Assembly: GCA_963921275.4 (NCBI GenBank)
Contig: OZ001293.3
Coordinates: 2,080,001-2,144,000, forward strand
Direction of reading: 5' to 3'
Source of the DNA: an uncultured Hormoscilla sp.
GTDB taxonomy: Bacteria > Cyanobacteriota > Cyanobacteriia > Cyanobacteriales > Desertifilaceae
Length of the DNA: 64,000 nucleotides
Below, one piece after another: positions 12,517 to 56,713 of the stretch (position 1 is its first letter; each line of letters starts with the position of its first letter). The translations under genes and the position numbers were made by a program. Below the pieces are notes generated by a model. The model was not told the origin of the DNA and did no database searches. It was given only the letters and a program-made list of their open reading frames with translations.

Positions 12517-14091
12517 CTCAAGAAACGGAAACTCTATGGCAAATAGGTAAACCTGGTAAAAGAGGTCAGGAGTTTGTGCAAGCAGGTGGCTGGCAAGCTG
12601 AATTTACTTATGTTGTTGGGTCTGATGAGGATGGGGTCGAGCCGGGAATCGCTTCCCGACCCTCCCTTGAGGAACCGGACTTGCGATTTTCACCGCATCC
12701 GGCTACTGGGTACTAGGCCCTTTTCATAGGTAGACTTAATAGGAATTACTTCCGTTAGCCCTTGCCGCCTGTCTTTTCTTCCCTTTCCTGGTTTAGCGAG
12801 TGGTTGTTCTGATAACCGTTAGTATCACCATTTTCAAGTCAGTTTTACCAGTTATCCATACCTTATCCTCCACTTGCGTTTCGGATTAGTTCCGTGGCTT
12901 TTTAGGATTACTCATTCCAGCAGCTTCCTAGTATCACCGACCCACGTCAGCGCTGGCTACCCAGCATCATCTACATTACTGTAGATGTTATCCCAGGAAT
13001 TACCCCGGGCATTCGCTTCTTGGGCCATCCCTCCCCCCGTGGCTTGCGCTTAACATCTAACTTGTCCTGATGGACAGCACACGAGAGGTTACTTCGTTCC
13101 CTAACAACATTTCGCGATACCTTTAGGTCCACACTATACCCCGGGAGCTATTTGAGTACTATATTAGCCAGAGTCTAAAACTAATACTAGCTACCATTTC
13201 CTTTTTAGGCCAGCGCATATAGCCTTATTTCGCTGGTTCCTTATAACGAGGCTTGCACATGTTTGCCTGCTCTAACCTTGGATATCTTTCCTAGCGGCGT
13301 CACCGGCTTAGGCTGCCAGTTATCCTACATTTGAGTCCTCGCTTAGCACCACGATGATGTCGCTTCGTAGCACCGAGGACCGGTGTCACCCCCGTACCTG
13401 GGGGGAGGGGAATTTAACCCCCATGCGGTCAGAGTTCCCGGCTAATGAAACCGGGCTAGCGTTCCGTGTTTGACCACGTTAGGCTAGAACGAATCGCACA
13501 GACTCAATAAACCTACCCCATATGCCGCCATTGCTGTTGGTTCCAGGTCGCAAGACGAAGCAAAAGCGATACGGGAAGCAGATTTTTGCTACAGATAAAC
13601 TAAACATCCAATTTACCCTAGCCCAGGATTATAATGCCGAGGAACTCACGCTTTTTTACGACTTTTTGGGCTCTGAAACTGACACCCTGTTTGTAGATGG
13701 CGAGCCAGTGACGAAACTCGTAGGAGTCGGTAAAGACAAGCTGAAGCAAACTCAGATTACTTTACCCGCTCTGAGCGCAGGGGAACATACCCTGACCATC
13801 ACCACCTCTGGTGGGAAGGGAGATGGCAGACATTGGATTGACTACCTGAAGCTCGAGGGGATTGTCGCTCCTCAGCAACCAGAAACATCAAAGGAGGAAA
13901 CTATGGTTAATAAAAAGCCTACCGCAAAATCTCAAACGGCTGAGAAGAAAAAGTCTTACGTCATGACTTCTACGACGGGTATGCAAGACTAATCTTATTG
14001 GTCGCTCCACGTCCGCGATCGCTACGGGGAAGAGGCGAAAAAATATGAACGCGATCCCAAACCTTTCCGACGAGGGCGGATTTGGGCTTAA
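12513..14091 (+). pseudogene. patC: PatC/TenC/TruC-family gene with an extra N-terminal beta-sandwich domain; split by an antisense intron and a nonsense codon
   Basis: Removing 12629-13499 restores one frame (VGSDE-DSINLPHMPP); C-terminus TTGMQD*SYW...KPFRRGRIWA with in-frame TAA at 13990-13992. Confidence 0.85.
12629..13499 (-). mobile_element. ORF-less group II intron, inserted antisense in patC
   Basis: Minus strand starts GTGCGATTCGTT; domain V AGCCGGATGCGGTGAAAATCGCAAGTCCGGTTC followed by a DVI hairpin; no RT ORF; colinear with the prfC intron. Confidence 0.9.
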
Positions 14092-15756
14092 CTCTAAGGC
14101 TACCTCTTTTTAGTGATTTTGTATAAACGTACATCCTCGCCCGATGACGAACGAAAGATTGCTTCCTTTGTCAAAACTTACTTAACTTATTAGTCACAAA
14201 CCTTCGCTTTATGCAAGCAACCACGCTCCAAATTAAGCCCCACTTTCACGTTGAGATAATTGAGCCAAAGCAAGTGTATCTTCTCGGCGAACAGGGCAAC
14301 CACGCTCTCACCGGGCAGCTCTACTGCCAAATTCTGCCTTTCTTAAACGGCGAATACACCCTAGAACAAATTGTTGAAAAGCTCGACGGGCAAGTTCCGC
14401 AGGAATATATCGACTTCGTACTCAATCGTCTGGCGGACAAAGGCTATATAACTGAGGTGGCTCCAGAACTATCCCTGGAAGTGGCAGCATTTTGGAGCGA
14501 ACTGGGAATTGCTCCTTCTGTGGTGGCAGAAGGGCTAAAGCAGCCAGTGGTGTTGGCAAGGGCGGGCAAGGGCATTAGTGACTGGGTTTTGGCTACGCTC
14601 GCGGCAGCTCTGGAGGAAGCTGGCATTCATGTGTCAGATCCAAAGGCAGGGGATTCTACTGCCCAGCTTAAGGTCGTGTTGACCGATGACTATTTACAGC
14701 CGGAACTTGCAGCGATCGACAAGCAGGCGTTAGAGCGCCAACAACCCTGGCTGCTGGTTAAGCCTGTGGGCAGTATCCTCTGGTTGGGACCGGTGTTCGT
14801 TCCTGGGGAAACCGGATGTTGGCACTGTCTTGTCCATCGATTGCGAGGCAACCGCGAAGTTGAAGCATCGGTATTGCAACAAAAACGAGCGCTGCAGGAG
14901 CGCAACGGTCAACATGGGAATGGTAGAGTGGGTTGTTTGCCCACAGCACGGGCAACCCTACCTTCTACCCTACAAACAGGGTTAAAGTGGGCTGCCACCG
15001 AGATTGCTAAGTGGACGGTCAAACGGTACGTCAACGCCAAAGCACCGGGAAAAGCTCGTTTTCCCACTCTAGATGGCAAGATATTTACATTCAACCAGAC
15101 GATTCTGGAGTTGAAAGCTCATCCTCTGAGCCGACGGCCGCAATGTCCGACCTGTGGAGATCGAGAAATTCTACAACGGCGTGGTTTTGAACCTCTGAGA
15201 CTAGAGTCGCGCCCCAAACACTTCACCTCCGATGGCGGTCATCGCGCCATGACCCCAGAACAAACGGTGCAGAAATACCAACACCTAATCGGGCCGATAA
15301 CTGGGGTGGTGACAGAACTGGTGCGAGTTTCTGACCCTGCCAATCCCTTGGTGCATAGCTACCGGGCGGGGCATAGCTTTGGTAGTGCTATGTCTCTGCG
15401 GGGGTTACGGAATACCCTACGCTACAAGAGTTCTGGTAAAGGCAAGACCGATAGCCAATCTCGGGCGAGTGGGCTTTGTGAGGCGATCGAGCGCTATTCG
15501 GGCATTTTTCAGGGAGACGAACCCCGCAAATGGGCAACTTTGGCTGAATTAGGAGACGTGGCGATTCATCCAGAACAATGTTTGCACTTTAGCAACAGGC
15601 AGTATGAAAACCGGGATGCGCTCAACGCTCGGCAGCAGCCTATCGGTGGATTCCCAATCGGTTTGATGCCAGTCAATCCATAGACTGGACGCCCGTATGG
15701 TCGCTGACGGAGCAGAAGCACAAATACGTGCCCACTGCTATCTGTTACTATAACTA

Positions 15757-16768
15757 ACTCAAGTTGCGACCTATAAAAATTGGATACAAAAAGCTATGAT
15801 AAAGAGAATTATTTTCAACTCTAATCCCTTAGATGTAACAGCATGAATTGACTTGGGAAACAAATTGGTGATTCGACTAAAACAGGTTTCAACTTGTTTT
15901 CTTGTTACTTTTTGTATATATTCAAAACAAGAAGATTCTTTTCTTTTTGAGTTCTTTTTTCGCAAAGGTTTTAACATTATACTTGACGACTCTTTTAGTA
16001 AATCCTCTAATTGATAATCATTATAAGCTTTATCTCCATAAACTATTGAATTTGATGGTAAGTCAAAGCCAAAAGATTGCAAAACTTTAACATCATTATA
16101 ACTACCAGGATCTAGATAAAATTCTATTGGCTTTCCATTTTTGTTTACCAACATATGAACTCTTAATCCATAAAAATAACGTTTTTTACTGGCAATATAC
16201 CCTCGATATTCTTCCTTGTTATAAATTTGGCATCTATCAATCCTAATATTATCACATACTGGCACCGGGAAACTATCAAGAATATATTCTTGACCCGGAT
16301 TGAGCTCTTTAAATGTTTGAGCTATAACTTGGAAGAAAAACATCCAAATTGGTTCCTCAATATTGTGTAATCGACGATTGAACCTACTTTTACTTAACAG
16401 ATTTTTTATATACTTGTGTTGGACCATAAATTGACAAGAGCGATCGTGGTGTCCTCCGAAAAAATATGCAGCAACTAATCCGACTGTCATCACTTCGGCA
16501 TTGTTCATTTTTACTTGTGGATCTTCTTTTATATTTAACGCTTTTAGTAGCTCGTCACAAAGAACAAAAATTGTTGTAATCATATCTTCCATCATCTACA
16601 TCCCCCAGCAATTAACTATTATTTTAGTACATTATAACCTATAAACAGCCAACCCGCCGTCTAGCACAAAAAAAATATAATTTTGTATCAAAAGCTACGA
16701 AATATCCCAAATATCTGTAAAGTCTAAGTGGGTAATTCATATTTTTTTTAATAGGTCGCAACTTAGGT
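15757..16768 (-). mobile_element. IS982-family insertion sequence (1012 bp)
   Basis: 18-bp IRs ACTCAAGTTGCGACCTAT / ACCTAAGTTGCGACCTAT; 8-bp target duplication TATAACTA at 15749-15756 and 16769-16776; AT-rich. Confidence 0.92.
15771..16595 (-). CDS. IS982-family DDE transposase
   Basis: SKSRFNRR, ILDSFPVPVC, YFYGLRVH, YGDKAY, RKQVETCFS. Confidence 0.9.
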   Translation of the reverse strand: MMEDMITTIFVLCDELLKALNIKEDPQVKMNNAEVMTVGLVAAYFFGGHHDRSCQFMVQHKYIKNLLSKSRFNRRLHNIEEPIWMFFFQVIAQTFKELNPGQEYILDSFPVPVCDNIRIDRCQIYNKEEYRGYIASKKRYFYGLRVHMLVNKNGKPIEFYLDPGSYNDVKVLQSFGFDLPSNSIVYGDKAYNDYQLEDLLKESSSIMLKPLRKKNSKRKESSCFEYIQKVTRKQVETCFSRITNLFPKSIHAVTSKGLELKIILFIIAFCIQFL

Positions 16769-17697
16769 TATAACTACCCGCTGCCTCCGGCAGATCGCTT
16801 CTGTAAGGCTGATTCCAACGGAAACGCAGCAGGGAACTCCCTGGAAGAGGCAATTTTGCAAGGGTTTATGGAACTGGTGGAGCGCGATAGCGTAGCCCTG
16901 TGGTGGTATAACTGCCTGCGCCGTCCGGAAGTGGACTTGAGCAGTTTTGAGGAGCCATATTTTCTCCAGTTACAGCAGTTCTACCGCACCAAAAATCGCA
17001 AGATGTGGGTGCTGGATTTGACGGCTGACTTAGGGATTCCCGCCTTTGCAGGTTTATCCCGGCGCACGGTGGGTAGCTCGGAGCGGGTCTCAATCGGTTT
17101 TGGAGCGCACCTAGATCCTCAAATTGCCATCCTCCGGGCTCTAACTGAGGTCAGTCAAGTTGGGCTAGAGCTTGATAAAGTCCCTGACGAGAAACTTGAT
17201 AGGGAGTCAAAGGACTGGATGTTGGAGGTGACTTTAGAGACTCATCCCTGTTTGGCTCCCGATCCCTCCCAGCCTCGGAAAACTGCCGACGATTACCCGA
17301 AGCGCTGGAGCGATGACATTTATAGAGATGTCATGGATTGTGTGGAGATGGCCAAAGTTGCCGGACTAGAAACCTTAGTGCTAGACCAGACGCGATCGGA
17401 CATCGGCTTGAACGTTGTCAAGGTAATTATACCGGGAATGCGAACGTTTTGGTCGCGGTTTGGTTTGGGGCGACTCTACGATGTCCCCGTGAAGCTTGGT
17501 TGGCTGAAGGAGCCTCTAGCTGAAGCACAGATGAACTCTACGAACATCCCATTTTAAGAATTTTCAAGTTTGGGGGCAACAGGCTTCCCTACGTGCCGGA
17601 TGTTGCCCCAGTAGGCTTCTTCTCAAATGAAGAAGGGGAATGACCCACCCGAACGGGTCAATAAAGCAAAAAAAGACAACCAATGAGGTTTTTTTCA

Positions 17698-17943: not shown

Positions 17944-18193
17944 GCGTAAGGATATATGGCTAATACAAAGTCCGCCTCAAAAGATTAAAAGCCAATCCCA
18001 AAAGGGATGCAGCAGATCTGGGTAGTTAACCTACATAAGCCGGATTTGGTATTAGATAGCTATAGAAGACGAGGTTAAAGATAGCCAAGTCGCTGAAACG
18101 TTCTTTTGAGTTTTGTGGGTGCAGGCTGTTCTCCTCTACCCTCGTCTTCTTTTATTTCAGTTGTTAAATCCTTACTTACTAAGATTCAAGATT

Positions 18194-19150
18194 ATGAACC
18201 TAACTTCAATACTTAAACATAATCGTCTCGCAGACCGCCGTCTTCAGTTTATGCGTGCCCATCAAGATGCTTTTGATGTGGAGGCAGCTTTCCCTCTGCC
18301 TATCTTTGAAGAGGCAATGCTTGAGATAGAGGGCGCTTGTGGATTTGAATGCTCTTGCAAAGTTGAAGCTGGCCAACTGCTAGCAGGGCGTTTTGAGATT
18401 TGTAATGATGTGGTAAAACCTTGGCCGGGATCCCTAACCCATGCAGTTAAGCTATTGGATCGGATTGAAAATCGGTTGGGCGTCCGCCTTAATCGTGACC
18501 TGTTCGAGCAGTTTGTAGCAGTACATCTTGGCTCTGGCAAAATCGATACTAATAGTATCGGCATTCACTTGGGTTCAAAGCAGGAAGATAACAGTATAAT
18601 AATATATATCTATCTCAATTACGATCGAGATCCTGAAGAATTGGTAAGAACAGCGATCGCTCTCGATGGGGGTTACTACTCAGATGAATTGAGACAGGTT
18701 CTAATGAGAGATACCATGCTCATCGGCTTTAAACTTTTTTTTGATGGTCGCAGTCATGTGGAGCTATGTCCTTGTGCTTCAGCAAAGCCTGGAAAATTGG
18801 GAAACAGAGGGAAGTATCTCATACCCTACATCCAAAAGCACTTTTCAGCAAAGGTGAATTACCTGTTTAGAGTTTCATCTATGGTGATGACAGGCTTTTC
18901 TAAAGCCTGTGTAAAACCAGTATACTGGTTTTACTTCGCCAACATCAAAGACATCTTAAAATATGTTTCATTTAATAGCTTAGGAGATCGGATATATAAT
19001 TTTTGTCAGAGTCAAAGTTGCATTACATTGTCTGCTGTAGCAGTTGCAGAGCAAGAGTTAGAGAAGAATAGGTTAGAAAATTTTTGTTTTTACTACAATC
19101 AACGTGACGAATGCCAACCGCATCCAAGTCCAGATTGGGACTTTTCTTGA
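18194..19150 (+). CDS. patF: PatF/TruF/LynF-family protein (PatF-like, lacks the D/R/K motif residues)
   Basis: RRLQFMRAHQDAFDVE...FNSLGDRIY...ELEKNRLENFCFYY; IGIHLGSK..NSIII segment. Confidence 0.88.
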   Translation: MNLTSILKHNRLADRRLQFMRAHQDAFDVEAAFPLPIFEEAMLEIEGACGFECSCKVEAGQLLAGRFEICNDVVKPWPGSLTHAVKLLDRIENRLGVRLNRDLFEQFVAVHLGSGKIDTNSIGIHLGSKQEDNSIIIYIYLNYDRDPEELVRTAIALDGGYYSDELRQVLMRDTMLIGFKLFFDGRSHVELCPCASAKPGKLGNRGKYLIPYIQKHFSAKVNYLFRVSSMVMTGFSKACVKPVYWFYFANIKDILKYVSFNSLGDRIYNFCQSQSCITLSAVAVAEQELEKNRLENFCFYYNQRDECQPHPSPDWDFS

Positions 19151-19320
19151 AAACAAGATTCGGTAATTATATATTAATTATCTATTGCCATGATTGCTCA
19201 TCCCTTTGCAGTTTCCCTCAACCCCGATATCCAAGTTCTCGGAAACTGAAAATGCAATTGTATGAGCCGGTATTTTCAGATAAATTTGTAAATCACCTTA
19301 AGATTACATCTCTAACTTCT

Positions 19321-20303
19321 ATGTTTCAACATAATCGTCTCAAAGACCGCCGTCTCCAGTTTCTGCGTGCCCATCAAGATGCTTTCGATGTAGAGCCAAC
19401 TTTTATTCTTTCGCTCTTTGAAGAAGCAGTATTGGGAATAGAAGGGAATTGTAGTGTCGAACCCTTTTGTAATGTTGAAAAAAATCGGTTGTTTGCAGCA
19501 GACTTTCATGTTTCTAATGAAGGACATACATGGCCAAGATCTTTGACTGATGCTGTAAAGTTCTTGGATCGAGTTGAAACTAAAGTAGGCGTTAAACTCA
19601 ATCGCGATTTGCTCGATCGGTTTGTGGCGGTACACATTGACTCCCATAAAATAATAAACAACACGATTGGAATCGACCTAAGACAGAGAAACGAGGATTC
19701 TTGCATCAAGGTATTTATGCACCTTGATTATGAAGAAGAGGCTGGAGAATTAGTGAGGACAGCGCTCGCACTTGATGGAGGCAGCTATTCGTCTGAATTA
19801 CTACAGGTATTACTTAAAAGCACTATTGTCATTGGGTTAATATTTTCCTGAATGGCTACAGTGATGTAGAGCTGTGGCCAGCTTGTGTGGGAGAGCAATA
19901 TGAAGGTCGTAAATTGAATCGAGGCAGGTATTTGAAAGATTATGTTCAGAAATTCTTTTCTACTAAAGTCAATTCTCTGTTAAGAGAATCGGCTGTATTG
20001 GCAGTCATTTTTTCTAAAGCGAAGAAGGCAGAGCCAATTCTAGCATTTCATTATGAAGATATTAAAGACATACGAAAGTATTTCTCATTCAACAGTTTAA
20101 GCGATAGAATTTACAGCTTTTTTCAGACTCAAGATTGCATCAATGGTCCTGGTGTGAATGTGACGGAGTTGGAATTAGAAAAAGATCGATTGGAAAATTT
20201 TAGTTTGTTTTATAATAAACGCGATAACTGTCAGCCTATGCCTTTTCTTCAAATGCCGATTGATAATCAACGTTTCGTTAGGCTTATGCTTCAAGTGAAT
20301 TAA
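19321..20303 (+). pseudogene. Second PatF/TruF-family prenyltransferase, 1-nt deletion near 19838
   Basis: RRLQFLRAHQDAFDVE...IGIDLR...SCIKVF; GGG TT AAT ATT TTC CTG AAT GGC needs one more T to read IGFNIFLNGYSDVELWP and join ORF 19887-20303. Confidence 0.85.
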
Positions 20304-24533: not shown

Positions 24534-24582
24534 GAGTTAGTGTCTAGAATTTTTCGCCACCTTTACCAATGGTGGTAATGTA

Positions 24583-26606: not shown

Positions 26607-29004
26607 ATTAAACTAAGCCAGTCCGTCACCGGACCGACTCGTCTTCAAAACCGGACATGAGACTTTCGCCTCATCCGGCTCCTCGGTCACGCCACCCTTG
26701 TCATGGGTACGGCTACTACCATCGCTGGCAGTCTTTTTGTCGTGGCAGTGTTTGTGTAGCAACTGTAGGTTGTCATACCGGTCCTTACCTCCTAGTGAAA
26801 GGGGCATGATATGGTCAACTTCCCATTTGTCACTATCCATAAACGTTAGTCCGCACTGTTGGCATTTTCCCTTTTGCTGCTTGAGTAGCGTTGCTACCCT
26901 TTTACTCAGTTCGAGGCTTTTGCCTAATCTTGTGCTCCAATATGTGAGGTTCCCGTCGTATGGGCTTGCGGTCCCTTTCACTTTTACGTGTCTGATTATC
27001 TCAGTTTCGGAGTGTTTGCGTATCTTCATATCACCCTCTTTTGTCTTGCTTCGGAATCGCCATTTAGCATCCTGGTTTACAGACCAGTATTTATAGGTTA
27101 TCCAGTTACTTGACTTGTTAGGGTGCCTCCTTTTGGCCCATTGCCATAGGATGTTTTATAGGTAGTTGTCCATATCGCTGTAAGTTTCCTTGCTTACCAC
27201 TGTCCTAAAGTAGTTTGACCATCCCCTTATTATCGGGTTTAGCCTGCTTATTAGGGCCGCTTGTGGTGCTGTTATATGGCTAGTTACCATTTCTGATAAC
27301 CGTTCTTTATGCTTCCCTATGGACTTATTACTGGGTTTGATTAGGGTTTTGAATCCTAGGGGTGTTCCGTTTGTTGATTTGCCGGTTCTGTATTTTCCCT
27401 CTTTATATTGCCTTATATTGAATCCTAGGAAGTCGAATCCCGGGTTTTCTCCATTTAGCCTGTGGGCTATCTTTGTCTTTTCGGCCTTCAACTCAAGCCC
27501 TATTCTTCTTAGCCACTCTGCCACCACTGTTTGCGCTCTGTCTATCATCTCCCTGTCTTCATGCATGATCACAAAGTCGTCTGCGTATCTGACTACCGTC
27601 AGCTTTTGCTTTTCCCTTTGTGTCTTTGCTAATTCCATTACTGCTTCCTCTAACCCCTGTAGGGCTATATTGGCTAGCAGTGGGGATATGACACCCCCTT
27701 GTGGCGTTCCTGCCTCAGTTGTGTGCCATATCTTCTTGTCAATCACCCCGGCTTTTAACCATGCCCGTACTTGTTTACGGATTGGTGACGTAGTATTTAA
27801 TTTTTCGACTAGCGCTTTGTGGTCTATCCTGTCGAAACATTTCGCAATATCTGCATCTAATACCCATTTGGGTTTCTGTTTAATGCTGCTGAATATTGCC
27901 GCAATTGCATCGTGGCATCCCCGACCCGGTCTGAATCCGTATGAGTTCCCCTCCATATATGCTTCCCATTCGGGTTCGAGCGCAATCTTGAGGAGCCCTT
28001 GATTCGCGCGGTCGTGCATCGTGGGTATTCCTAAAGGACGTTTTTCTTCTCTCCCTGGCTTAGGAATCCATACACGACGTGTAGGCTTAGCCTTGTTTGA
28101 GATTTCAATCTGTCCTACCAGTTCTCGGCGTTGCTTTGGGGTTAGTGATTTCACACCATCCACACCGGCTGTCTTCTTTCCCTGGTTATCTTGTGTAACC
28201 CGTCGTACCGCTAGACATTTGGCAGCCCGGGAGCTTACCAGTAACCTTTGGAGCCTGCGAACTTTTTGCTTATTGCCTTCTTGTGCCGCTCTGTAAATTC
28301 GTTTTTGCAACTTAAAGACTACCCGTTCCAGCCGAGGCCAGGGGATATCCTTCCATTCATTCATCGATTTTGACATCGTGCTCATGACGTATGTATTGCT
28401 ACTTACAACTTTACAATTGACGTTACCGTGAGGGCGTCAGCATATCCCATCCATTACAGAAAGGCGTTAGCTTCTCCGCGAAATCTTTCCCAGATATAAC
28501 CTGCCGAATGTAAGCAGATGTTGCGCCTTTGGTGGCTGCTCAACCTATCGACCGGTGGTTGAGAGTATGTACCTGGTTTACTTCGTTCCTCTAGATGATT
28601 GGTCGTAGTTTTAGGTGGATTCCTTATGCCGGGTTTATTGTCGGTGCTTATTGGTCGGAAAAGGAACCGCCAATGACCATTATCCTTTCCCTTTTGGGCC
28701 AGCGTGTTTAGCCTTATTACGCTGGTTTGTCGTAACGACACTGTAAATCTTTGCTTTCGCTCACCGTAACTACTTGCACGCTGCGCGAAAAATCGGCGAT
28801 GACCGGTTTAGGCTACCAGCCAGGGCGCCTTTCGTACCCGCTTCACGGATTGATGCCATCGCTACCGTGGGGTAAGTGCTGTCACTCCTGCACCTGGAGG
28901 GGTGGGCTTTCACCACCATCATCTAAAAGTTATCAAGGCTAATGGAGCCTTGCCAGTGGTCCCCCTTCGGTTATCACCGGTGGTTTACACTGAACGAGTC
29001 GCAC
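26607..29004 (-). mobile_element. Group II intron (chloroplast-like class) encoding RT-maturase-HNH
   Basis: Starts GTGCGACTCGTT; domain V GAGCCGGATGAGGCGAAAGTCTCATGTCCGGTT; ends TTTAAT. Confidence 0.9.
26613..28385 (-). pseudogene. ltrA: Group II intron-encoded protein (RT/X/HNH) with one in-frame TAA at 27156-27158
   Basis: RPLGIPT, GFRPGR, DADIAKCFD, GTPQGGVISPLLANI, RYADDF; DNYL*NILWQWAKRRHPNKS continues in frame to CQQC...VDHI...NLQLLHKHCH. Confidence 0.9.
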
Positions 29005-29395
29005 TGGAATCTCCGATATTTCACTTCCCTTATCATTATAAAAGGTTAAAGGATAAATGGCATTCTCAGGCAGAGCCAGGGAACCATGAAGATCGCGATC
29101 GCCGCTCTGGTCCGAACTACACTGACGATGGTAACGGCATGGAGATTGCTAGCCCTCCTGGCGTCGGGCCGCTGCGCTAACGGGGGGAGTTACTCCTACT
29201 ATACAATGATATCTCAATTATCCGCCCCCCGAGCAATGACATTGTTTATGGTAACGGCGGCTCAGATGTAACGCTATTAGATAGCACGGGCATTACTTCT
29301 TCTGCCAATTCTGCAACACTTCCTTCCCGGTAGGACGCGATCGCTACTATCCCAGTCGCAAACCCCCCTTAGGCATTATAGAAGCTTACACCCGC

Positions 29396-40662: not shown

Positions 40663-40788
40663 ATACTGAGCTCTTGCACTTTTGTCAATGGGCTACGCTT
40701 GTTACCAGGGTCGGCCTGGGAATGAGCGACCCGAGGCAGAGCCTTCTTTTTCTAATACAAACTGGTCTCTGATAATTGATAACTGACT

Positions 40789-41571: not shown

Positions 41572-41607
41572 ATTGCTACTGGATCGTTATGGTATCCGGA
41601 GGACCGT

Positions 41608-41919
41608 GCCGGCCTTTACCTGTTCAACTGGGGTGCTAGGATTCGAACCTAGGAATGGCGGGACCAAATCCCGCTGCCTTACCGCGCCAGCCTTTACCTG
41701 TTCAACTGGGGTGCTAGGATTCGAACCTAGGTATGGCGGGACCAAATCCCGTTGCCTTACCGCGCCAGCCTTTACCTGTTCAACTGGGGTGCTAGGATTC
41801 GAACCTAGGTATGGCGGGACCAAATCCCGTTGCCTTACCGCGCCAGCCTTTACCTGTTCAACTGGGGTGCTAGGATTCGAACCTAGGTATGGCGGGACCA
41901 AAACCCGCTGCCTTACCGC
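41608..41919 (-). repeat. 78-bp tandem repeat (4 units): 3' 58 nt of tRNA-Gln plus 20 nt of downstream flank
   Basis: ctggggtgctaggattcgaacc starts at 41628, 41706, 41784 and 41862. Confidence 0.93.
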
Positions 41920-41933
41920 TTGGCTACACCCCA
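41862..41933 (-). tRNA. trnQ: tRNA-Gln(UUG)
   Basis: TGGGGTGTAGCCAAGCGGTAAGGCAGCGGGTTTTGGTCCCGCCATACCTAGGTTCGAATCCTAGCACCCCAG; cloverleaf, TTG anticodon. Confidence 0.95.
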
Positions 41934-42291
41934 ATTCGCTTCTTTTGATATCATAACCTTAAGAGCCTGGTAATTGTCAAGTCTAATTTCCATTTTTTTT
42001 GAAAAAATTTTTCCGACATCTGCCAAACCCTTACCCTATGGGCGTTATAGAGAATTTGTTTTTTTGTTTACCTCCGGGGCATCTGTCCTTTTCGGCGGTG
42101 GCCTAGATCGACCAGAGCGTTGGTACGGTACTCTTGACTCGCACTTGCGAGCGTTGACTAACCCGGCCTTGAACAAGTATAAACTGTCGAAGCCATTGGT
42201 TATGGGTCAACAGCGCTTACCTGGCTGCCCCATCCTAGCCCGCAAATCTGAGATCCACTTTCCCATTTACACTTGTTCAAAAGGGCCAGCA

Positions 42292-42823
42292 ATGTCCATC
42301 CCAAATCCGATGGAGGAAAAGATATCTTCCAGTTTGACTGATGTACCGACAATCCTGACTGTCGATGACAGCGAGATCGTGCAAAAGTCGATCAAACGCT
42401 ATTTAGGAACTCCGATTAAACAAGATGGAAGCCCTAAAGTCCTGTCAGCTAGGGCGTAAGGAGCGAATTTGTCACGTTATTACATCCTCGTTCCTTAGGC
42501 AGCGACTATCGGGTGCTAGTGGCTAGCCATGCTGTCGATGCTCTGGCCTTAATTTACCATGAATCTATCGACCTTGTCCTGCTAGACGTTTCTATGCCAG
42601 AAATTGATGGGTCTGAACTTTGCGCGGTGGCAGCATCCCGCAGTTTCAGCATCTGGCGATTATAATGGTCACAGCCCGAGATAGCCTCCTTGATAAAGTG
42701 CAAGGGCGTCTTGCTGGTGCCACCGAATATTTAACCAAGCCCTTTGAAGCTGAACAACTGATCGCGGTTGTAGGCAAATTTGCCCCGCCAGATCACACTG
42801 CCACCGAGGGGGTTGATAACTGA
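42292..42823 (+). pseudogene. Single-domain response regulator, interrupted and frameshifted
   Basis: TILTVDDSEIVQ.. [insert] ..VLLDVSMPEIDG..LC / IIMVTARD...GATEYLTKPF. Confidence 0.8.
42406..42494. mobile_element. 89-bp miniature insertion with TTA target duplication
   Basis: TTA|GGAAC...GTTCC|TTA; excision restores KRYLGSDYRVLVA. Confidence 0.7.
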
Positions 42824-42841
42824 ATCACCGATTGCATATAC

Positions 42842-43306
42842 TAGACCTGTCCAAGAATAAAACCTTTGCCAGATCTGGGTTTCAATCTCCACCTCACTCG
42901 ATGGCATATGTTACTTACACGAATAAATCAGGGTTTGATGTATTTACTGTCAACAAAGCAAAGGTAGTATTGATTAAACTCAATTTTTTAAAAGCAATCG
43001 CCAAATTATAATATATCTGAAACCCAGACACCATACACAATTAGTTCTAGCCAACAACTTAGAGCAATAACTGACTCCAATAGATGTAGTAATTCGAGAA
43101 TAAATGCGCCATAAAAAAGCTGAAACATTTGCGGTGATTACCATTTATTCAGCTTATTTACTCAATTGAGCGTTATTACGAGCTGATAATAAGCATTGAT
43201 TTCGATTATTGGCAATTTTAACTGCAAATATAACTCATATTTATCGACTCATCAATAAAATTTTTACCTCCAATTCTAGCAAAAAATTATATTTTGGACA
43301 TGTCTA
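42842..43306. mobile_element. AT-rich MITE-like element
   Basis: Terminal IRs TAGACCTGTCCAA / TTGGACATGTCTA; no transposase recognised. Confidence 0.5.
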
Positions 43307-43430
43307 CTTCAAATCGGTATCTGTAATCCACCGATCGAGGAGTGGTGAGCAAGTTTACTTTATCTTACCACTCCCCAACTTGGGTGATGCCAATTTGGGC
43401 TGCCAATTTGGGCTGCCAATTTGGGCCGCT

Positions 43431-43952
43431 CTAAGTAGAGGCTGTTTGTGCTGCCAACAGTTCTTTGAGTTTCGCCAGATCCTTTGCCCAGCGAGGATCC
43501 GGCTGAATGTCATTGGCACTAGAAGCAGCAGCAGGGCTTGTGTTAGCTGGGCGACGAGACTTATTTTTGTTTTTACGCCCGCCACCGCTAGGAGCCGGAC
43601 GGCTGCTGGCGGTTGCCGTTCCTACCGTTCCGGAAAAATCGGACGGCTCGCCGCCATCTTTAGCTTCTTTGCCTTCTTTGCCTTCTTTACCTTCTTTACC
43701 TTTTTGACGCGGCAATGCCTTTTCAATCTTCAGGGTGCTGTCTTTGAACACATAGCCGTTGAACTTCTCAATAATTTCGTCAGCCTTTTCGTCGGTTTTG
43801 ACTGTGACAAAACCGAAACCACGACATTTCCCTGTTTTCCGATCGGTGATCACCTTCGTAGTCACAGAGTCACCCTCTTCAGCAAATACCTCTGCGAGCT
43901 GTTTGCGCTCTATTTCCTTGGGCAGATTCCCTACATACAGACGAATGGACAT
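43431..43952 (-). CDS. RRM RNA-binding protein, Rbp3/RbpG-like class
   Basis: IRLYVGNLP, CRGFGFVTV, C-terminal PDPRWA..LAKLKE. Confidence 0.9.
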   Translation of the reverse strand: MSIRLYVGNLPKEIERKQLAEVFAEEGDSVTTKVITDRKTGKCRGFGFVTVKTDEKADEIIEKFNGYVFKDSTLKIEKALPRQKGKEGKEGKEGKEAKDGGEPSDFSGTVGTATASSRPAPSGGGRKNKNKSRRPANTSPAAASSANDIQPDPRWAKDLAKLKELLAAQTAST

Positions 43953-44632
43953 AATACCTCCAGACTTTGATTTGACATTTTCAAGCTAGGCACTGCTTTG
44001 CTACCCAGTCAAATGGGTAGCAACTTTGACAATGCCTCATATTTCATGAACTCGACAAATAAGACACCTCTATCTTTTTTTACCAAGACAATCCCGCTTT
44101 TGGTTTACGAGGCCCGAACTTCACCCCGATGTCTCTGGAGTAGTGCGAGTATGATGTCCCCCGGGTTTTCGCCGTGCGTCCGGGGGACATCATACTCTCC
44201 AGAGACATCTAAGTACCGGACTCTGTGCCCGGGGCGATCGCACAACACCTAACTGCCCATTTCTAATACCAACCATGCTTTCAGTTATCATGTTCTACTT
44301 CATTAGCTCGCCGATCCTACCGAATACCTGTCTTTAAACCTTTTTTAACATCTTCTCTACTATTTACAAAAACTCCTGTTCATCTGTTCAATACTTACAG
44401 CTCCACAAAAAAACCGCCGCAGTCAGGGGCTGGTAGCTTTGGGGGTATTGGCAGTCAGAAAACATGAGTTGCACCATCCATCGGGCAGTAAGGGACAGAA
44501 ATGGGAAAAACGAATGTGCTGCGCGCCCAGCGCAGCGCCATCGGCCTGGTCTTCACTGCACAGAGATTATGTAATGAAACTTAACATATTTTTCTCCATT
44601 GAGCAACTTTTCTTTACATTTTTCCTCAGACC

Positions 44633-46947
44633 CTAAGTTTGCCAGATCAGGTAGGCGGACCACACCCCAGCCGCAAAAGCCACAATGGTCAGCCAGATGG
44701 GTAGATAACTGTGACTGGTTCTGTTCGGGCTGGTGCCTAGGGTTTCCAGGTCGAGCCAGACAATGGCCCCCCGGCGCAACCAGCCCGTTGCGATGACTGA
44801 TTGACCGATTAAATCCCGGGGACGGAGTCCACTACCATCCCATAAATCCCCAATGGGACCCAGGGGGGAGATGTAGTGTAACTTCACTAAACCACTGCCC
44901 GTTTGCAGATAAAAATCCTGTCCTAACCCGTTACTGAGGCCGCGACGCCCCAATAGTTTGCCTTGTAAGCAGCAGGTTTTGCTATCTGCCGGTAGGGCTT
45001 GGCTATTGGCGATCGCCTCGGTTAAATTCACTTCGGTTAAAGCGGTGCGTCGTTTGACATTTGGGAAATAGCGATTGAGCAGTATCAAGATGTTGATGTT
45101 GAAACTAATCAGCAGGCAAGCGGCCATCAGGTCGCCTCTTTGATCTTGAGACAGCCACACTAAATTACCAATATACATGAAATAGGCTATTTTTCCAATT
45201 AGCCACAGAAAAATTCTGAATCCTAGACCCAGCACTAAGCTAATTATCAGGGCCGTTTGCAGCAGGGGCAAGCCTTGTAGCTGTTCAATAGTAATGATAC
45301 AGCCATATCAATGGTATCCCTGATGTACGATCGCTTCGTTCGCGTAGCATGCGCGCAGCGCATTCTTTTCCGCTCTGGCGCGATCGCCGGTAAATCCAGT
45401 TCTGTTTCTAGACCCCAGTAGCGGGCGTAGTGAGCGAGTCGTTGCAGTCTTACTCCCATCAGGGGATGTCCGGTACCCCACGTCAACCACCGACTGTAAG
45501 GATTAAGGATATCCCACGACCAATTAGCATAAGCTTGCCAGTTACAGATAGCCTGACTATACCCTACAGGCTTGAGTAAATCAAAACTTTCTGTTAAAAA
45601 GCTGGTTGACTTGGTTTTCTGGATATCATCAGTAATGCCGCGAGCAATTTTCAGCAAGGCGCGGGTAAGAGCATTGGGGTTGCCCGTCGTTGCCACAGAG
45701 CCAGCGTCGCTATAAAGTAGCCGCTGCCGCGACAACCACAGCAGGGGCAAGCGCAGTAGCCAATAGTAGCCGTAACTGAGATTAGCCACCAGTGCCGCTA
45801 CCGTTCGGAATAAAGATTCTAGCAATGGTCTGTCTATTCGGTCTGAGGCATACTCTCCCCATTTTCCCACTTGCCAATAGAGGATGTAAGGAATTTGCAG
45901 TACCAATACCCCTACGGACATGACCATAAAATCCCAGTTGACGATTTGCGCTAACTGTGCTGCATAGATAGTGGCAATTTCGTCATCTCCTAGTTGCTCC
46001 AATAGTCCCTCACTAACTACAATCCGGGCAGTCATCGATAAATTTCCGTATGTAATTGCCACGGGTGTGGATGTGGGTAAAATGCCTAACTGGGGCACTC
46101 TCATTCGTCGCTGACGGCAAAATCTTTGCATCACTTTGGCTGCATCTGGACTGCGATCGCGCAGCTGGGCGTGAGTCATTGGTTTGAGACCATGAAAGAA
46201 TCTCAGCAGCCCATCCATTAACCAAGGAGACAAGACTAGCATGATTGCCAAGGTGAGAAAGACCAACTGGGTGGGATCGCGATCGAACGAGTCAATGGGT
46301 CGCAACAACGGCAGTAAGGCTAAGATTTTGTTAATTGTAACCTCAGCGAATCTGAGTATAGCACGACTCCACCAAAAGAAGGCGATCGCAGTTACCCCCT
46401 GTAGCACCCACAGCAACCTGATATCAGAGACCAAACCTGGCCCGACAGGCAATGGTCCCCACTGCTTTGCCCTTGGTGCCTGACGCCACTCACGATCTTC
46501 TACTATCTTCCTAGTTGGTTCTGCAGTTGGAGCCTGGGTTAAGGCTGCTGGCTTAGGAGCCAAGGGCGCAAAACCGGTGGGATCTCCGGATAAAGGAACG
46601 AAACCTGTGGGGTCTGTTACTGGGGTTGATGGTAACGCAGTGGGATGCTGACGTGCGCGTAGCGTGCGCGCAGCGCATTCGCTCAAATCCGCTAGAGTTT
46701 TTACAGCCCAGTTTTTCACTTTCCGATTACTGCTTTGGCGGAGGAGCTGACAGAGGGCGATCGCCTTTTCGGGCTGACCTGTGTCACGATAAGCCAATAC
46801 CAGACCTGTCTGGGCTTTGGTGAGGGTTTTATCGTCCAGTTCCAACTCGCTGACAGCTGCTAGGTGGGCGATCGCGTTTTGATAATCTGATTGCTTGAGG
46901 GCGGCTAAACCCGCCTCTAGAGATGGGTTGTCCGGGATAGATGTCAT
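44633..46947 (-). pseudogene. M48/HtpX-like membrane protein with N-terminal TPR; frameshift near 45265
   Basis: ARIVVSEGLLEQL.DDEIA.IYA, NPNALTRALLKI, HPLMGVRL; continues in ORF 44633-45271 (GKLLGRRG..N.LGQD). Confidence 0.75.
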
Positions 46948-49427: not shown

Positions 49428-49474
49428 TTTGCTCCCAGTTTGACACTTCTCAATTAATTCGTCTCAATTCTCAA

Positions 49475-50689: not shown

Positions 50690-52031
50690 ATGGGCAAAAA
50701 GCCAACAATTGCGCTCTATCACTTGGGATGCGAAAAAAATCGCATAGATACCGAACATATGCTAGGCCTATTGGCACAAGCAGGATATCAGGTAGACTCG
50801 AATGCAGAGTTAGCAGATTATGTTATAGTCAATACCTGTAGCTTTATCGAAGCAGCACGGGCAGAATCAGTACGGACCCTGGTAGAACTGGCAGAAGCAA
50901 ACAAAAAAATAGTGGTGACGGGCTGCATGGCCCAACACTTCCAAGCCGAGTTGCTAGCAGAACTGCCAGAGGCAGTAGCTGTAGTCGGGACGGGAAGTTA
51001 TAACAAAATTGTAGACGTGATTCAACGGGTAGAAACTGGAGAGCGCGTACAGGAAATATCCGCCGAACCGACTTATATTGCTGATGAAACAACGCCCCGC
51101 TACCGGACAACGACGGAGGCGGTAGCCTACCTGCGCATAGCAGAAGGCTGTGACTATCGCTGTGCTTTCTGCATTATTCCTCATTTACGCGGTCAGATGC
51201 GATCGCGCCCCATAGAATCGATTGTGGCAGAGGCGCAGCAGTTGGCAGCGGAAGGGGTCGAGGAAATAATTTTGATCTCGCAGATAACAACGGCTTACGG
51301 CATAGATATTTACGGCGAACCAAAATTAGCAGAACTGCTGCGGGCCTTGGGAAAAGTGGAGATCCCCTGGATAAGAATTCACTATGCTTATCCGACAGGT
51401 CAGACGGCCCCAGTGCTAGCGGCAATGAAAGAAACGGCCAATGTGCTGCCCTACCTGGATTTACCTTTACAACATTCCCATCCGGAAATCCTCCGGGCGA
51501 TGAACCGCCCCCTGGCAAGGGCGGGTGAATGACGAGATTATTGACAAGCTCAAGGCAGCAATGCCTGCTGCGGTGTTGCGAACGACTTTGATCGTTGGGT
51601 TTCCCGGGGAGACGGAGTCCCATTTTGCCCATCTTTATGAGTTTGTGCAGCGTCATGAATTCGATCATGTCGGAGTGTTTACCTTTTCTCCAGAAGAGGG
51701 AACTCCTGCCTATAATTTGCCCAATCAACTGCCAGAAGCGGTGAAGGAAGATCGACGTTCTAGGTTGATGGCTTTGCAACAACCAATATCCCTGAAAAAA
51801 AATCAAGGGGAACTGGGCAAGGTAGTTGATGTGCTCCTAGAACAAGAAAACCCTGCCACAGGGGAGTATATCGGTCGATCAGGCCGATTATCGCCAGAGG
51901 TGGATGGGTTGGTTTACGTCCAGGGAAAGGCGAGGTTGTCGGGAATAGTGCCTGTGAAAATCACGGCGGCAGATGTTTATGACCTTTACGGTCAAGTTGT
52001 TGGTCATTCTTCATCAGGTCAGGATTATTGA
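50690..52031 (+). CDS. rimO: Ribosomal protein S12 methylthiotransferase; +1 C in a homopolymer at ~51510 splits the ORF
   Basis: [34 protein letters not shown] frameshift; [15 protein letters not shown] tail. Confidence 0.9.
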
Positions 52032-52075
52032 CAAGTGAGGAAAATGACAATTGCATTATGTTTGAAGGAGAATTA

Positions 52076-53470
52076 ATGACTCTATCATTCCAAAGTTTAG
52101 GAATTTCAGAAGCTCGGACTCGACATCTAGAAAAAGAAGGTTTTACAGAGCCGACAGAAATTCAAGCTCAAGCAATACCGCACCTGCTGTCAGGTCGGGA
52201 TGTAGTAGGTCAAGCCCAAACGGGAACTGGGAAAACGGCAGCTTTTGCCCTACCGATTATAGAAGGGATCGATATAAAAACAGCAGCACCTCAAGCTCTG
52301 ATTTTGACTCCTACTCGCGAATTGGCTATACAGGTTTGCCAAGCCATTAGAAATATCACCGGTGATAGGCGGGTGCGAGTGCTGGCAATCTACGGCGGTC
52401 AAGCGATCGATCGCCAGATCGATCGTTTGGAAAGGGGGGTCCAGATTGTGGTGGGAACCCCCGGACGAGTGATAGATTTGCTCGATCGGGGCTTCCTGAG
52501 GCTGGAGTCCGTCAACTGGGTGGTGTTGGATGAAGCAGATGAAATGCTGAATATGGGCTTTATCCAGGATGTGGAAACAATCCTGAAACAGGCCCCAGTA
52601 GAGCGGCAAACCGCTTGTTTCTCGGCGACGATGCCCTATTCAATTCGGGAGTTGGTGACTAAGTTTTTGCGATCGCCGGTGACGGTGACGATCAAGCAAC
52701 CGAAAGCCGCACCCAACCGGATCAATCAAGTGGCCTATATGGTGCCGCGCGGGTGGACAAAGGCCAGGGCGTTGCAGCCGATCTTGGAAGTAGAAGAACC
52801 AGAATCAGCTCTCATATTTGTCCGTACCCGTCATCAAGCGGCAGAACTGACGAGCCAACTGCAAGCTGCTGGTCATAATGTGGATGAGTACCACGGAGAC
52901 CTGAGCCAATCTCAACGGGAACGGCTGATGCTGCGGTTTCGCCATCGGCAGGTGCGGATGGTGGTGGCTACGGATATCGCGGCCCGGGGATTACATGTGG
53001 ATGACCTGACTCACGTGATCAACTACGACCTGCCCGATAGCGTCGAAAGCTATGTCCACCGTATTGGTCGTACCGGTCGGGCGGGCAAAGAAGGTACCGC
53101 GATTTCTTTGATTCAACCATTTGACCGGCGGAAACTGTATCAAATTGAACGGCACGTGCGCCAAAGGCTAGAAATAACGAAGGTGCCGACCCGTTCTCAA
53201 ATCGAGGCCCGGCATCTGGAAAAACTGCAAAAGGAAGTGCTCGAAGCTCTCACGGGCGAGCGGATGGCTTCTTTCTTGCCGATTGTGGCGAAAATGTCTG
53301 AGGAAGAATACGACCCTCATGCGATCGCGGCTGCTACTCTGCAAATGGCCTACGACAAAACCCGTCCGGCCTGGATGCAATCGGATTATAACGATGATGA
53401 GATCCCACCAGCGACTCCCAAGCCGAAGCTGGTGAAGCGTCAGAAGACACAGGCGCCGTCCCGAAGTTAG
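52076..53470 (+). CDS. crhR: DEAD-box RNA helicase, CrhR-like
   Basis: AQTGTGKT, PTRELA, LDEADEM, SAT, HRIGRTGR; rimO-crhR order known from Synechocystis. Confidence 0.9.
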   Translation: MTLSFQSLGISEARTRHLEKEGFTEPTEIQAQAIPHLLSGRDVVGQAQTGTGKTAAFALPIIEGIDIKTAAPQALILTPTRELAIQVCQAIRNITGDRRVRVLAIYGGQAIDRQIDRLERGVQIVVGTPGRVIDLLDRGFLRLESVNWVVLDEADEMLNMGFIQDVETILKQAPVERQTACFSATMPYSIRELVTKFLRSPVTVTIKQPKAAPNRINQVAYMVPRGWTKARALQPILEVEEPESALIFVRTRHQAAELTSQLQAAGHNVDEYHGDLSQSQRERLMLRFRHRQVRMVVATDIAARGLHVDDLTHVINYDLPDSVESYVHRIGRTGRAGKEGTAISLIQPFDRRKLYQIERHVRQRLEITKVPTRSQIEARHLEKLQKEVLEALTGERMASFLPIVAKMSEEEYDPHAIAAATLQMAYDKTRPAWMQSDYNDDEIPPATPKPKLVKRQKTQAPSRS

Positions 53471-54154: not shown

Positions 54155-54239
54155 AACAATAGGATATTGTCAGCCCGGTTTTCAGTAAAAGCCGGGTTTA
54201 TTATTGCATGATTAACGGATGTTGTGTATTCTAGGATTT

Positions 54240-56713
54240 ATGTCTACGGAACTGGAAACGGAATTACAAACAGAAGTCGATCGCAGGCGCAATTTTGCGA
54301 TAATTTCTCACCCGGACGCGGGGAAGACCACCCTGACAGAAAAGCTGCTACTTTATGGAGGTGCGATCCACGAGGCGGGGGCGGTGAAGGCGAGGGCCCA
54401 ACAGCGCCGCGCTACTTCTGACTGGATGGCGATGGAACAACAACGGGGTATTTCGATCACTTCGACGGTGTTGCAGTTGTGCGATTCGTTCTAGTCTAAC
54501 GTAGTCAAATACGGAACACTAGGCCAGGTCCAAACTGGTAACTCTGGTATTCATGGGGGTTAAATTCCCTCTCCCCAGGTACGGGGGTAACACCGGTCCT
54601 TAGTGCTATAGAGTCACATCGCTGTGGTGCGAAGCAAGGACTTAAATGTAGGATAGCTGGCAGCCTAAGCCAGTGACGCCGCTAGGAAAGATGCTCAAGG
54701 TTAGAGCAGGCAAACCTGTGTAAACTTCGTTACACCGAACCAGCGGAATAAGGCTTATACGCTGGCCCAAAAGGGAAATGGTAGTTAGTGCTGGTAGTAT
54801 CTGCTTGCCAGCATCGTGCTCAAAGAACTCCCGGAGGAAAGCAGGAACCTAAAAGCATCGCGAAATGATACCAGGGAACGAAGTAACCTCTCGTGTGCTG
54901 TCCTCATTTGGACTAGTTAGATGTAAAGCGTAAGCCACGGGGGGAGAGATAGCCCGAGAAGCTAATGCCTAGGGTAATGCCTATGGATACGTTGAGGAAT
55001 AGGTAAGGATGCCTCAACATGCAGACGCGGGTTGGTGAAAGTAGGAAATCTTGGGCAAAAGTATCTCTAACAAGCCCCAATACCTCGCGTAGCTGAGGTG
55101 GGATGACTGGTAAAACAGACTTGAAAATGGTAATACTAAAGGTTATCTGGCAGCGCCACTTACCAACCAGGAAAGGGGAGAAATCACACGAGATGAGGGA
55201 CAACGGGAGTAATCCCCAGTAATCCTAGCAATGACAAGGCCCTACTTCCCAGTAGCCGGATGCGGTGAAAGTCGCATGTCCGGTTCCGAATGGGAGGGTT
55301 GGGGGGTGACCCCCAGTTCGACCCCTAATTGCTTATCTTAACTGTCAGATTAATCTCCTGGATACTCCCGGTCACCAGGATTTTAGTGAAGATACTTATC
55401 GAACTCTGGCGGCGGCGGATAATGCGGTGATGCTGGAGGATGCTGCTAAGGGTTTGGAACCTCAGACTCGCAAGCTGTTTGAAGTTTGCCGCATGCGCAA
55501 AATCCAGATTTTTACTTTCTTTAATAAGCTCGATCGCCCTACCCGCGAACCCCTGGAACTCCTGGATGAAATCGAGCAGGAACTGGGTCTGCAAACTTAC
55601 CCGACTAATTGGCCGATCGGGACGGGCGATCGCTTTAAGGGGGTGTTCGATCGCCGTCGGAGGCAAATCCACTTATTTGAGCGCAACCCCCACGGTAGGC
55701 GGGAAGCTAAAGATACGGTAGTGGATTTGGGGGATCCCCGCGTGGAGGATTTGTTAGAGCAAGACCTCTATTACCAACTGAAAGAGGATTTAGAACTCTT
55801 GGAAGGGTTGGGGGCAGAATTTGACTTGGAGGCCATCCATGCAGGTCAAATGACTCCCGTTTTCTGGGGTAGCGCTATGACTAATTTCGGGGTCCGGCTT
55901 TTCCTGGATGCTTTCCTGGAATATGCTCTCAAACCCGGCGATCGCAAGAGTAGCGCGGGGATGATGCCACCCAGTTATCCTGAGTTTACGGGTTTTGTGT
56001 TTAAGCTGCAAGCGAATATGGACCCGAAACATCGCGATCGGGTAGCGTTTGTGCGGGTTTGTACGGGCAAGTTTGAGAAGGACATGACGGTCAATCATGC
56101 CCGCACTGGCAAGACGGTGCGTCTCTCCCGACCGCAGAAATTGTTTGCCCAGGACCGGGAATCTGTAGAGGTAGCTTATCCCGGGGATGTGATCGGTTTG
56201 AATAATCCGGGGGTGTTTGCCATTGGGGACAGTATCTACACCGGGAAGAGGATAGAGTACGAAGGGATTCCCTGTTTTTCTCCGGAACTGTTTGCTTACT
56301 TGAAAAATCCCAATCCTTCTAAGTTCAAGCGATTTCACAAAGGGATTTCCGAATTGCGAGAGGAAGGGGCCGTACAAATTATGTATTCGGCGGATGAATC
56401 TAAGCGCGACCCCATTCTGGCGGCGGTGGGACAATTGCAATTTGAAGTGGTGCAGTTCCGGATGCGGAGCGAGTATGGGGTGGAAACTTTGCTGGATATG
56501 TTACCCTATTCTGTTGCTCGTTGGGTTGTTGGTGGTTGGGATGCTTTAGAAAAGGTCGGGCGTTTGTTTAATACCGTTACGGTAAAAGATAACTGGGAAC
56601 GTCCGGTATTGTTGTTTAAGAATCAGTGGAATTTGGACCAGATCCAATCAGAATATAAGGATTTGCTTCTGAATGCGATCGCCCCTGTGGTGTCGGGTCA
56701 GGAACCTACATAG
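54240..56713 (+). CDS. prfC: Peptide chain release factor 3 (exons 54240-54478 and 55330-56713)
   Basis: [17 protein letters not shown]...[33 protein letters not shown] after splicing; [10 protein letters not shown]. Confidence 0.95.
54479..55329 (+). mobile_element. ORF-less group II intron (851 nt) in prfC, sense orientation
   Basis: GTGCG start; domain V AGCCGGATGCGGTGAAAGTCGCATGTCCGGTTC; ends CCCCTAAT; precise excision restores the frame. Confidence 0.95.

Follow-up and report, generated by a model that had tools for sequence, protein, structure and literature searches.

Group II introns lacking an open reading frame, with guide loops matched to their insertion sites, in a cyanobacterial genome

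How do introns that encode no protein of their own come to interrupt a patC homologue and prfC within one short piece of chromosome? This question is raised by a 64,000-nt stretch of DNA (contig OZ001293.3, positions 2,080,001 to 2,144,000, from assembly GCA_963921275.4 of an uncultured Hormoscilla sp.; the whole stretch is referred to as the window, and positions are counted from its first base), in which two related group II introns without an open reading frame (ORF), I1 and I2, lie in these two genes. The reading that we favour, with a probability of roughly 0.8, is that both belong to an old, non-autonomous ORF-less lineage that uses the reverse transcriptase (RT) of another intron in trans and inserts by loop-guided reverse splicing, and that I2 is a sense insertion and I1 an antisense insertion.

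Two colinear ORF-less introns with exact boundaries

At Rfam gathering thresholds the window contained three group II domain 5/6 matches, at 12631-12707 (minus strand), 55251-55329 (plus) and 26607-26683 (minus). Scores against RF00029, for which the gathering score is 40 bits, were 44.4 for I1, 44.5 for I2 and 55.4 for a third intron, I3; in each a domain 5 with the catalytic AGC and a 2-nt bulge is followed by domain 6. A profile made from I1 and I2 detected a single further piece in the window, a 5' fragment, F (match 37031-37162, minus), which spans profile positions of about 1-140, does not retain the exon-binding site (EBS) region and is 74.6% identical to I1 and 76.6% to I2. The sequence GTGCG is found at the 5' ends of I1, I2 and I3 (consensus GUGYG) and ATGCG in F, where the first base is A for G. 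The four elements are:

12629-13499, minus strand: I1, ORF-less group II intron of 871 nt, antisense in the patC homologue
54479-55329, plus strand: I2, ORF-less group II intron of 851 nt, sense in prfC
26607-29004, minus strand: I3, RT-bearing group II intron of 2398 nt, RF00029 55.4 bits
37031-37163, minus strand: F, 5' fragment of a family member, about 133 nt, nhmmer E 2.8e-21

The original prediction, made from the letters of the window, described I1 and I2 as colinear homologues of about 860 nt, and they are colinear from end to end with an identity of about 75-76% over 872-873 columns. The coordinates it gave for both introns were confirmed as exact. It also placed a third 5' fragment at 37030-37163, where F is present, and an RT-bearing relative with a common domain I block at 26607-29004 (minus); this block of I3 is 86.8% identical to I2 over 53 nt.

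Excision of exactly 12629-13499 rejoins the two parts of the patC homologue, and the resulting protein was gapless at the junction when aligned with eight full-length PatC/TenC/TruC-family proteins (a ninth homologue, P0036, begins downstream of the junction). Excision of 12631-13499 instead breaks the patC frame. The 3' ends of the family fall four bases past CTCGACCCC, this ending being ATCC in five copies, and because the family ends and the patC frame agree, the 3' boundary of I1 is placed at 12629 and not at the 12631 of the Rfam match. Disruption of patC by an antisense intron, as had been proposed, is therefore borne out by a seamless reading frame upon excision.

12513-12628, plus strand: patC homologue part 1 (38 codons and 2 bases), from the joined alignment
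13500-13992, plus strand: patC homologue part 2, 43 homologues at E <= 0.001

Part 2 matched 43 database proteins, several of them named as PatC/TenC/TruC family, the top matches having 57-77% identity along 100% of the query; against Pfam and NCBIfam neither half gave a match above cut-off, the lone match being CBM_35 at 16.7 bits (cut-off 28). The gene comes after a PatA/PatG-family protease (TIGR03895, 940.7 bits) and PatB (TIGR04220), and the cyanobactin cluster also includes a YcaO heterocyclase and PatG-like genes; I1 lies on the opposite strand. The host gene of I1 is thus identified, from its relatives and its setting, as encoding a predicted PatC/TenC/TruC cyanobactin-cluster protein. 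As I1 is antisense and not removable from the patC mRNA, patC is split. That patC lost its function may be due to the insertion; other lesions are also present in the cluster.

I2 occupies an otherwise intact prfC. After its removal the exons abut in frame on the profile for release factor RF3, which agrees with the proposal that a sense insertion is tolerated.

54240-54478, plus strand: prfC exon 1, TIGR00503 profile positions 4-74
55330-56713, plus strand: prfC exon 2, TIGR00503 positions 77-525 of 527, 668.9 bits

I2 would be spliced from the prfC transcript. Among the best 120 of 7319 matches, the window's own protein was the sole prfC N-terminal fragment with an intron-derived tail, and the other prfC fragments there were contig-end or frameshift products.

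Guide loops covary with the target sites

In I1, EBS1 (AGACTC, 13176-13171, minus) pairs at 6/6 positions with the six bases that end the 5' exon (13505-13500), and EBS2 (ATAAGG, 13244-13239) pairs at 5/6, one of these a G-U, with GTTTAT (13512-13507), exactly as had been claimed for the patC copy. The target, with its intron-binding sites (IBS), is:

13500-13512, minus strand: I1 target, IBS1 13500-13505, IBS2 13507-13512

The prfC copy had been said to carry different loops that match prfC. Its EBS2, ACACCG (54732-54737), pairs 6/6 with CGGTGT (IBS2, 54466-54471), and its EBS1, ATCTGC (54799-54804), pairs 5/6 with GCAGTT (IBS1, 54473-54478), the exception being a U-U mismatch at -2. I1 and I2 therefore each pair at 11/12 positions with their own 5' flank.

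Relatives were collected by a scan of genome contigs with a degenerate domain 5 pattern, which gave at least 94 stretches, of which 93 loci were used (designated L and a number). The covariation between EBS and IBS for which the original prediction had called was assessed on the eight copies in which domain I and a 5' flank are both present: I1, I2, L016, L049, L031, L010, L032 and L002, six of the eight being from Hormoscilla metagenome-assembled genomes (MAGs). Each aligned copy carried 15 bases of exon. Standard pairs filled 82.3% of the 96 EBS/IBS cells, as against 46.5% in shuffled controls (0/500 shuffles were as high), and when the partner was slid by 1-3 columns 32-47% of the cells paired. 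Both sides varied in 11/12 pairs, with a covariation score of 0.961 against 0.251, and the spacing between IBS2 and IBS1 was one base in 8/8 copies. Mismatched combinations of intron and exon gave a mean of 4.5/12 (sd 1.7, maximum 8, 132 combinations), while six matched copies (I1, I2, L016, L049, L010 and L002) scored 10-12 of 12; chance matching between EBS and IBS is therefore excluded.

The EBS1 loops of four more distant introns, L045, L025, L059 and I3, are out of register in the alignment, and these introns were excluded from the formal count for this reason; by eye, the loops of the first three match their own flanks and those of I3 do not. At the first position of the 3' exon the copies differ along subfamily lines, and relatedness would consequently confound any covariation of EBS3 with IBS3.

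The ribozyme fold is conserved and carries no trace of an RT

RNAalifold of I1 and I2 together gave a six-domain fold of 230 pairs, 42 of which are preserved via changes on both sides, and the consensus domain I fold of the eight copies gave 122 pairs, 58 of them preserved in this way. These compensatory changes show that the ribozyme fold was under selection after the divergence of I1 and I2. Identity between the two introns varied by domain, at 79% in domain I, 91% in domain 2, 58% in domain 3, 68% in domain 4 (217 aligned columns, 14 gap columns) and 94% in domain 5. It had been allowed that folding might place the hexamers outside the EBS loops; in the comparative domain I fold both are unpaired, EBS1 within a 9-nt hairpin loop and EBS2 within an unpaired stretch, and in the single-sequence fold of I1 both hexamers are wholly unpaired.

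Group II introns have a bulged branch-point A in domain 6, 7-8 nt from the 3' splice site; here an unpaired A followed by 8 nt was present in I1, in I2 and in all 24 aligned 3' ends of the family. These ends read CC, AC or AT; the usual 3' end of a group II intron is AY. With models for the domain 5 of plastid ndhA and ndhB introns, RF04357 scored 61.1 bits for I3, and RF04356 scored 34.0 bits for I2 and 30.8 bits for I1, both under the gathering score. No subclass family for domains 1-4 was matched at E <= 0.05 by the introns of the window at permissive Rfam thresholds. The one-base spacing of IBS2 and IBS1, the likeness of domain 5 to plastid models and the closest solved IEP structure (for I3, see below) are indirect hints that the architecture of I1 and I2 is IIB-like and that their domain 5 is chloroplast-like; their 3' end is unusual.

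Neither I1 nor I2 encodes in domain 4 the RT/maturase that characterises an autonomous element. The longest sense ORFs are 58 aa in I1 and 44 aa in I2, with no similarity to RT. When ten ORF-less copies were searched by tblastn with the I3 protein, an RT remnant was found in 0/10 outside the part that overlaps domain 5; the sole matches with E < 1 corresponded to residues 553-581 of this intron-encoded protein (IEP), which overlap domain 5. The domain 4 profile of I1 and I2 is also matched by L049, L034, L071 and L024, from three Hormoscilla MAGs. As domain 4 is alignable and no RT remnant is found, the ORF-less state would be older than these splits, and the lineage appears to have spread as an ORF-less element.

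ORF-less relatives have moved in related genomes

The nearest sequences to I1 and I2, after each other, are L016 and L049 (68-71% identity), followed by L010, L032 and L002 (60-63%), and ORF-less copies in an Okeania MAG and in a further cyanobacterial MAG are ~49% identical to them. Copies were obtained from three Hormoscilla MAGs, and the domain 5 pattern also matched Chloroflexi, Actinomycetes and others. A distant search of a plasmid collection with I2 returned two records, both with domain 5 only.

The original prediction that the ORF-less members are mobile finds support in these relatives. Positions 40540-46113 of the window are 88-95% identical to L002 of Hormoscilla sp. GM7CHS1pb, in which an ORF-less family intron of 1355 nt (L002 1722-3076) occupies a site that is uninterrupted in the window; the joined flanks of L002 align here without the intron.

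44334-44364, minus strand: unoccupied target site, junction 44346/44347

In Hormoscilla GUM202, a 1003-nt stretch with an ORF-less intron is 100% identical on two contigs (L032 2955-3957 and L043 2955-3957), the flanks being unrelated on both sides and the identity ending within 2 bases of the intron ends. The loop fit is partial at both sites, 7/12 in L032 and about 8/12 in L043 (counted by hand). Identical copies with a partial fit are what ectopic retrotransposition would give. In Hormoscilla SP12CHS1 the last 72 nt of the intron are common to eight sites with differing 3' flanks, most of them at contig ends. Composite copies were also seen: L031 2396-3034 is an antisense copy nested within another copy, at L076 152-561 a 3' end of the ORF-less type borders on the C-terminal portion of an I3-type ORF, and inserts of ~0.3 and 1.2 kb, with a 171-aa ORF in them, interrupt the copy at L071 2957-5376. 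Together these data support mobility of ORF-less family members in related genomes, apparently very recent, and the family may still be active in the source genome today.

I3 and the supply of reverse transcriptase

The IEP frame of I3 (28385-26613, minus) scores 332.5 bits against TIGR04416 (cut-off 300) and encodes RVT_N, RVT_1 and the maturase domain GIIM ahead of an in-frame TAA at 27156-27158, with HNH after it in the same frame. Among solved structures the best match was 6ME0 chain C (E 8.8e-87), named 'Maturase reverse transcriptase', which we take to be the TeI4h protein. The EBS hexamers of I3 pair 2/6 and 1/6 with its own flank, and inspection by eye of the 76 nt upstream of the intron revealed no target matching them. 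Intact I3-type IEP frames are present in Hormoscilla GM7CHS1pb, at L059 and L004, each a single tblastn stretch covering residues 3-590. In the genome of the window, RT would be supplied in trans.

A stretch of 47-51 nt about 130 nt upstream of I3 (29136-29187) recurs with 94-98% identity in L004 and L059 at non-corresponding positions, and may be a small dispersed repeat.

Discussion

In the proposed mechanism, excised intron RNA would be bound by the RT/maturase of another intron, the EBS1 and EBS2 loops would find a DNA site through pairing with 12-13 target bases, and the RNA would be reverse spliced into this site and then copied into DNA. Changes in the loops would retarget different copies to different sites. 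I2, being in the sense strand of prfC, would have to be spliced, with a maturase acting in trans, for RF3 to be produced; I1, antisense to patC, could not leave the patC mRNA, hence the split gene.

A number of observations weigh against this reading. I2 folded alone is no stabler than shuffled sequences (z -1.18; 3/20 shuffles fold equally well or better) and pairs 2/6 bases of each EBS hexamer locally; its stability being indistinguishable from that of shuffles, it is the comparative fold that carries weight. Two of the eight copies fit their sites poorly, L031 and L032 both pairing at 7/12 positions, with 2/6 for EBS1 in the former and 2/6 for EBS2 in the latter. Where I3 has its TAA, 28/31 aligned homologues from the loci of the relatives have W, Y or F, an RT domain was found in 0/37 other ORFs of the window, and there is no intact IEP in these 64 kb. 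I3 itself is distant from I1 and I2, the resemblance being confined to a single block of domain I and to domain 5, and it is consequently not necessarily the driver. A difference of 24% separates I1 from I2, too much for either to be a recent copy of the other. The loci obtained by the scan did not include the source genome, for which the window copies alone were counted.

Several of these points would be expected if I1 and I2 were fossils, that is, old, vertically inherited and immobile, with I2 retained for splicing only, I1 and F as decaying debris and the loop matches as a leftover. The divergence of the two introns and the interrupted state of the sole IEP in the window fit such an explanation, as do the truncation of F, with its altered first base, and the many damaged genes of the region (a transposase interrupts patD, patC is cut short and xseA is fragmented). 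Against this, I1 retains an intact domain 5/6 and 6/6 EBS1 pairing without selection from patC, the compensatory changes show selection on the fold after I1 and I2 split, and close relatives have very recently been mobile in sister genomes. We regard fossil introns as possible, though rather unlikely; moreover, this explanation touches present activity only and not how the copies arrived.

Independent loss of the ORF from each copy at its own site after insertion, which the original prediction had named as an outcome that would count against it, is very improbable. An ORF-bearing intron with domain I blocks in common, I3, does lie in the same window, but separate deletions predict differing break-points and remnants, whereas the colinearity of I1 and I2 extends through domain 4 (68%, 217 columns, 14 gap columns), the same domain 4 profile is matched in L049, L034, L071 and L024, and RT remnants were seen in 0/10 copies. 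Spread without RT, by homologous recombination, segmental duplication or a DNA transposase, is less probable again: a DDE transposase gene is found 2.3 kb away from I1 and the sequence at 15753-16770 recurs near introns in L032 and L067, but the identity between L032 and L043 halts within 2 bases of the intron ends, the patC, prfC and empty-site boundaries are precise to a single base, and DNA-level copying does not predict covariation of loop with site.

A bolder form of the trans-mobilised ORF-less lineage can be put forward tentatively, and we consider it doubtful. The introns would represent an ancient, obligately non-autonomous lineage resembling short interspersed nuclear elements (SINEs), which lost all trace of its ORF long ago and continues to retarget and move, by means of the RTs of distantly related introns, in several filamentous marine cyanobacterial genera (Hormoscilla relatives, Okeania and MAGs), while in the source organism RF3 would depend on a trans-acting maturase in an organelle-like manner. 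If true, this SINE-like and organelle-like arrangement would offer a bacterial snapshot of the step to a common splicing apparatus.

Relation to known systems

Mohr, Ghanem and Lambowitz (2010; PMC2882425) described 28 group II introns in Thermosynechococcus elongatus, 17 of them ORF-less. In that paper, ORF-less introns (TeI3; TeI4 is ORF-bearing) were shown experimentally to be mobilised in trans by certain IEPs, some introns sit within other introns, and few lie within genes. In their review, Zimmerly and Semper (2015; PMC4424553) describe ORF-less introns as rare in bacteria and almost always co-occurring with related introns that bear an IEP, note that introns reside in housekeeping genes especially among cyanobacteria and the CL and ML lineages, and treat introns without IEPs mostly as splicing-only.

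The biology described here resembles that of the T. elongatus introns. Both cases involve a cyanobacterial host with many related copies, ORF-less copies located where EBS/IBS pairing is good, families set apart by diverged EBS sequences, ORF-less copies from one ORF-less ancestor (here a probable one), and introns within introns (here in the relatives, at L031 and L076). Mobilisation there is by the IEPs of other introns, as RT supply would be here. The differences are as follows. Remains of the ORF, N- and C-terminal, are visible in the ORF-less copies of T. elongatus together with one shared deletion break-point, whereas here no remnant is detectable; a break-point cannot accordingly be defined, and the colinear domain 4 fits a single origin. 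Divergence is much deeper here: identity is 75% between the two introns of the window, ~60-70% with the Hormoscilla copies and ~49% with the ORF-less copies of Okeania and of the further cyanobacterial MAG. One copy lies in a housekeeping gene, prfC, unlike the pattern described for T. elongatus. That organism has driver IEPs, while none is visible in the window, and it is a thermophile, whereas the host here is probably a relative of a mesophilic sponge symbiont. In contrast to the splicing-only view of the review, members of this family appear to have moved recently in relatives.

Plastid introns resemble I2 in being ORF-less, in lying in a conserved translation gene and in depending on a factor encoded elsewhere, as I2 would; the domain 5 resemblance is to plastid ndhA and ndhB introns. 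Unlike plastid introns, those described here lie in a bacterial chromosome, the ribozyme looks complete and relatives are apparently still mobile.

A literature search found no paper combining Hormoscilla with a group II intron, and a search combining prfC with group II introns turned up work on mobile elements of Shewanella and Vibrio alone. Biology of this kind is already in print for Thermosynechococcus; what is new is another, more diverged family. This second family, from symbiont-type mesophilic cyanobacteria, brings presence/absence polymorphisms, identical ectopic copies and one copy in a housekeeping gene, and provides an independent system in which to study the persistence of non-autonomous introns, the laxity of driver RTs and host dependence on trans-splicing factors. 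It also accounts for the splits in prfC and patC, two genes that annotation would otherwise show as fragments.

Other features of the window

The cyanobactin cluster is decaying by several routes, given the intron in patC, the early end of that gene and a heterocyclase split by a transposase. The patC homologue stops (13990-13992) about 29 residues before its homologues and has lost the conserved ...YSYWW...FRRGRIW tail. The PatD-like YcaO heterocyclase (14211-17557) is in two pieces, profile positions 1-65 (14211-15683) and 130-325 (16856-17557), between which the DDE transposase gene is located on the opposite strand (15771-16595), 2.3 kb from I1; the segment around it, 15753-16770, is the one that recurs beside introns in Hormoscilla loci L032 and L067. 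Three DUF5838 ORFs (18113-20303) also belong to the cluster, the second (2-169) and third (193-289) together making up one split copy.

A DEAD-box RNA helicase gene (52028-53470) is situated ~0.8 kb upstream of prfC. DEAD-box helicases aid group II splicing in other systems; nothing here ties this helicase to I2. Further upstream, a MiaB/RimO-type methylthiotransferase (50690-52031) is represented by two overlapping ORFs (UPF0004 with part of the radical SAM domain, and TRAM), which suggests a frameshift.

About 750 nt from fragment F, the gene for the large subunit of exonuclease VII (xseA, 37906-38718) is in pieces, with an OB fold of 109 aa followed by profile positions 43-105 of 315, and is probably a pseudogene. 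Within the region syntenic with L002, a 78-nt unit is repeated in tandem at 41603-41919 (4.1 copies, 97% match) and overlaps most of a tRNA-Gln (41861-41934); one intact tRNA alone is called, and L002 has one copy of the unit.

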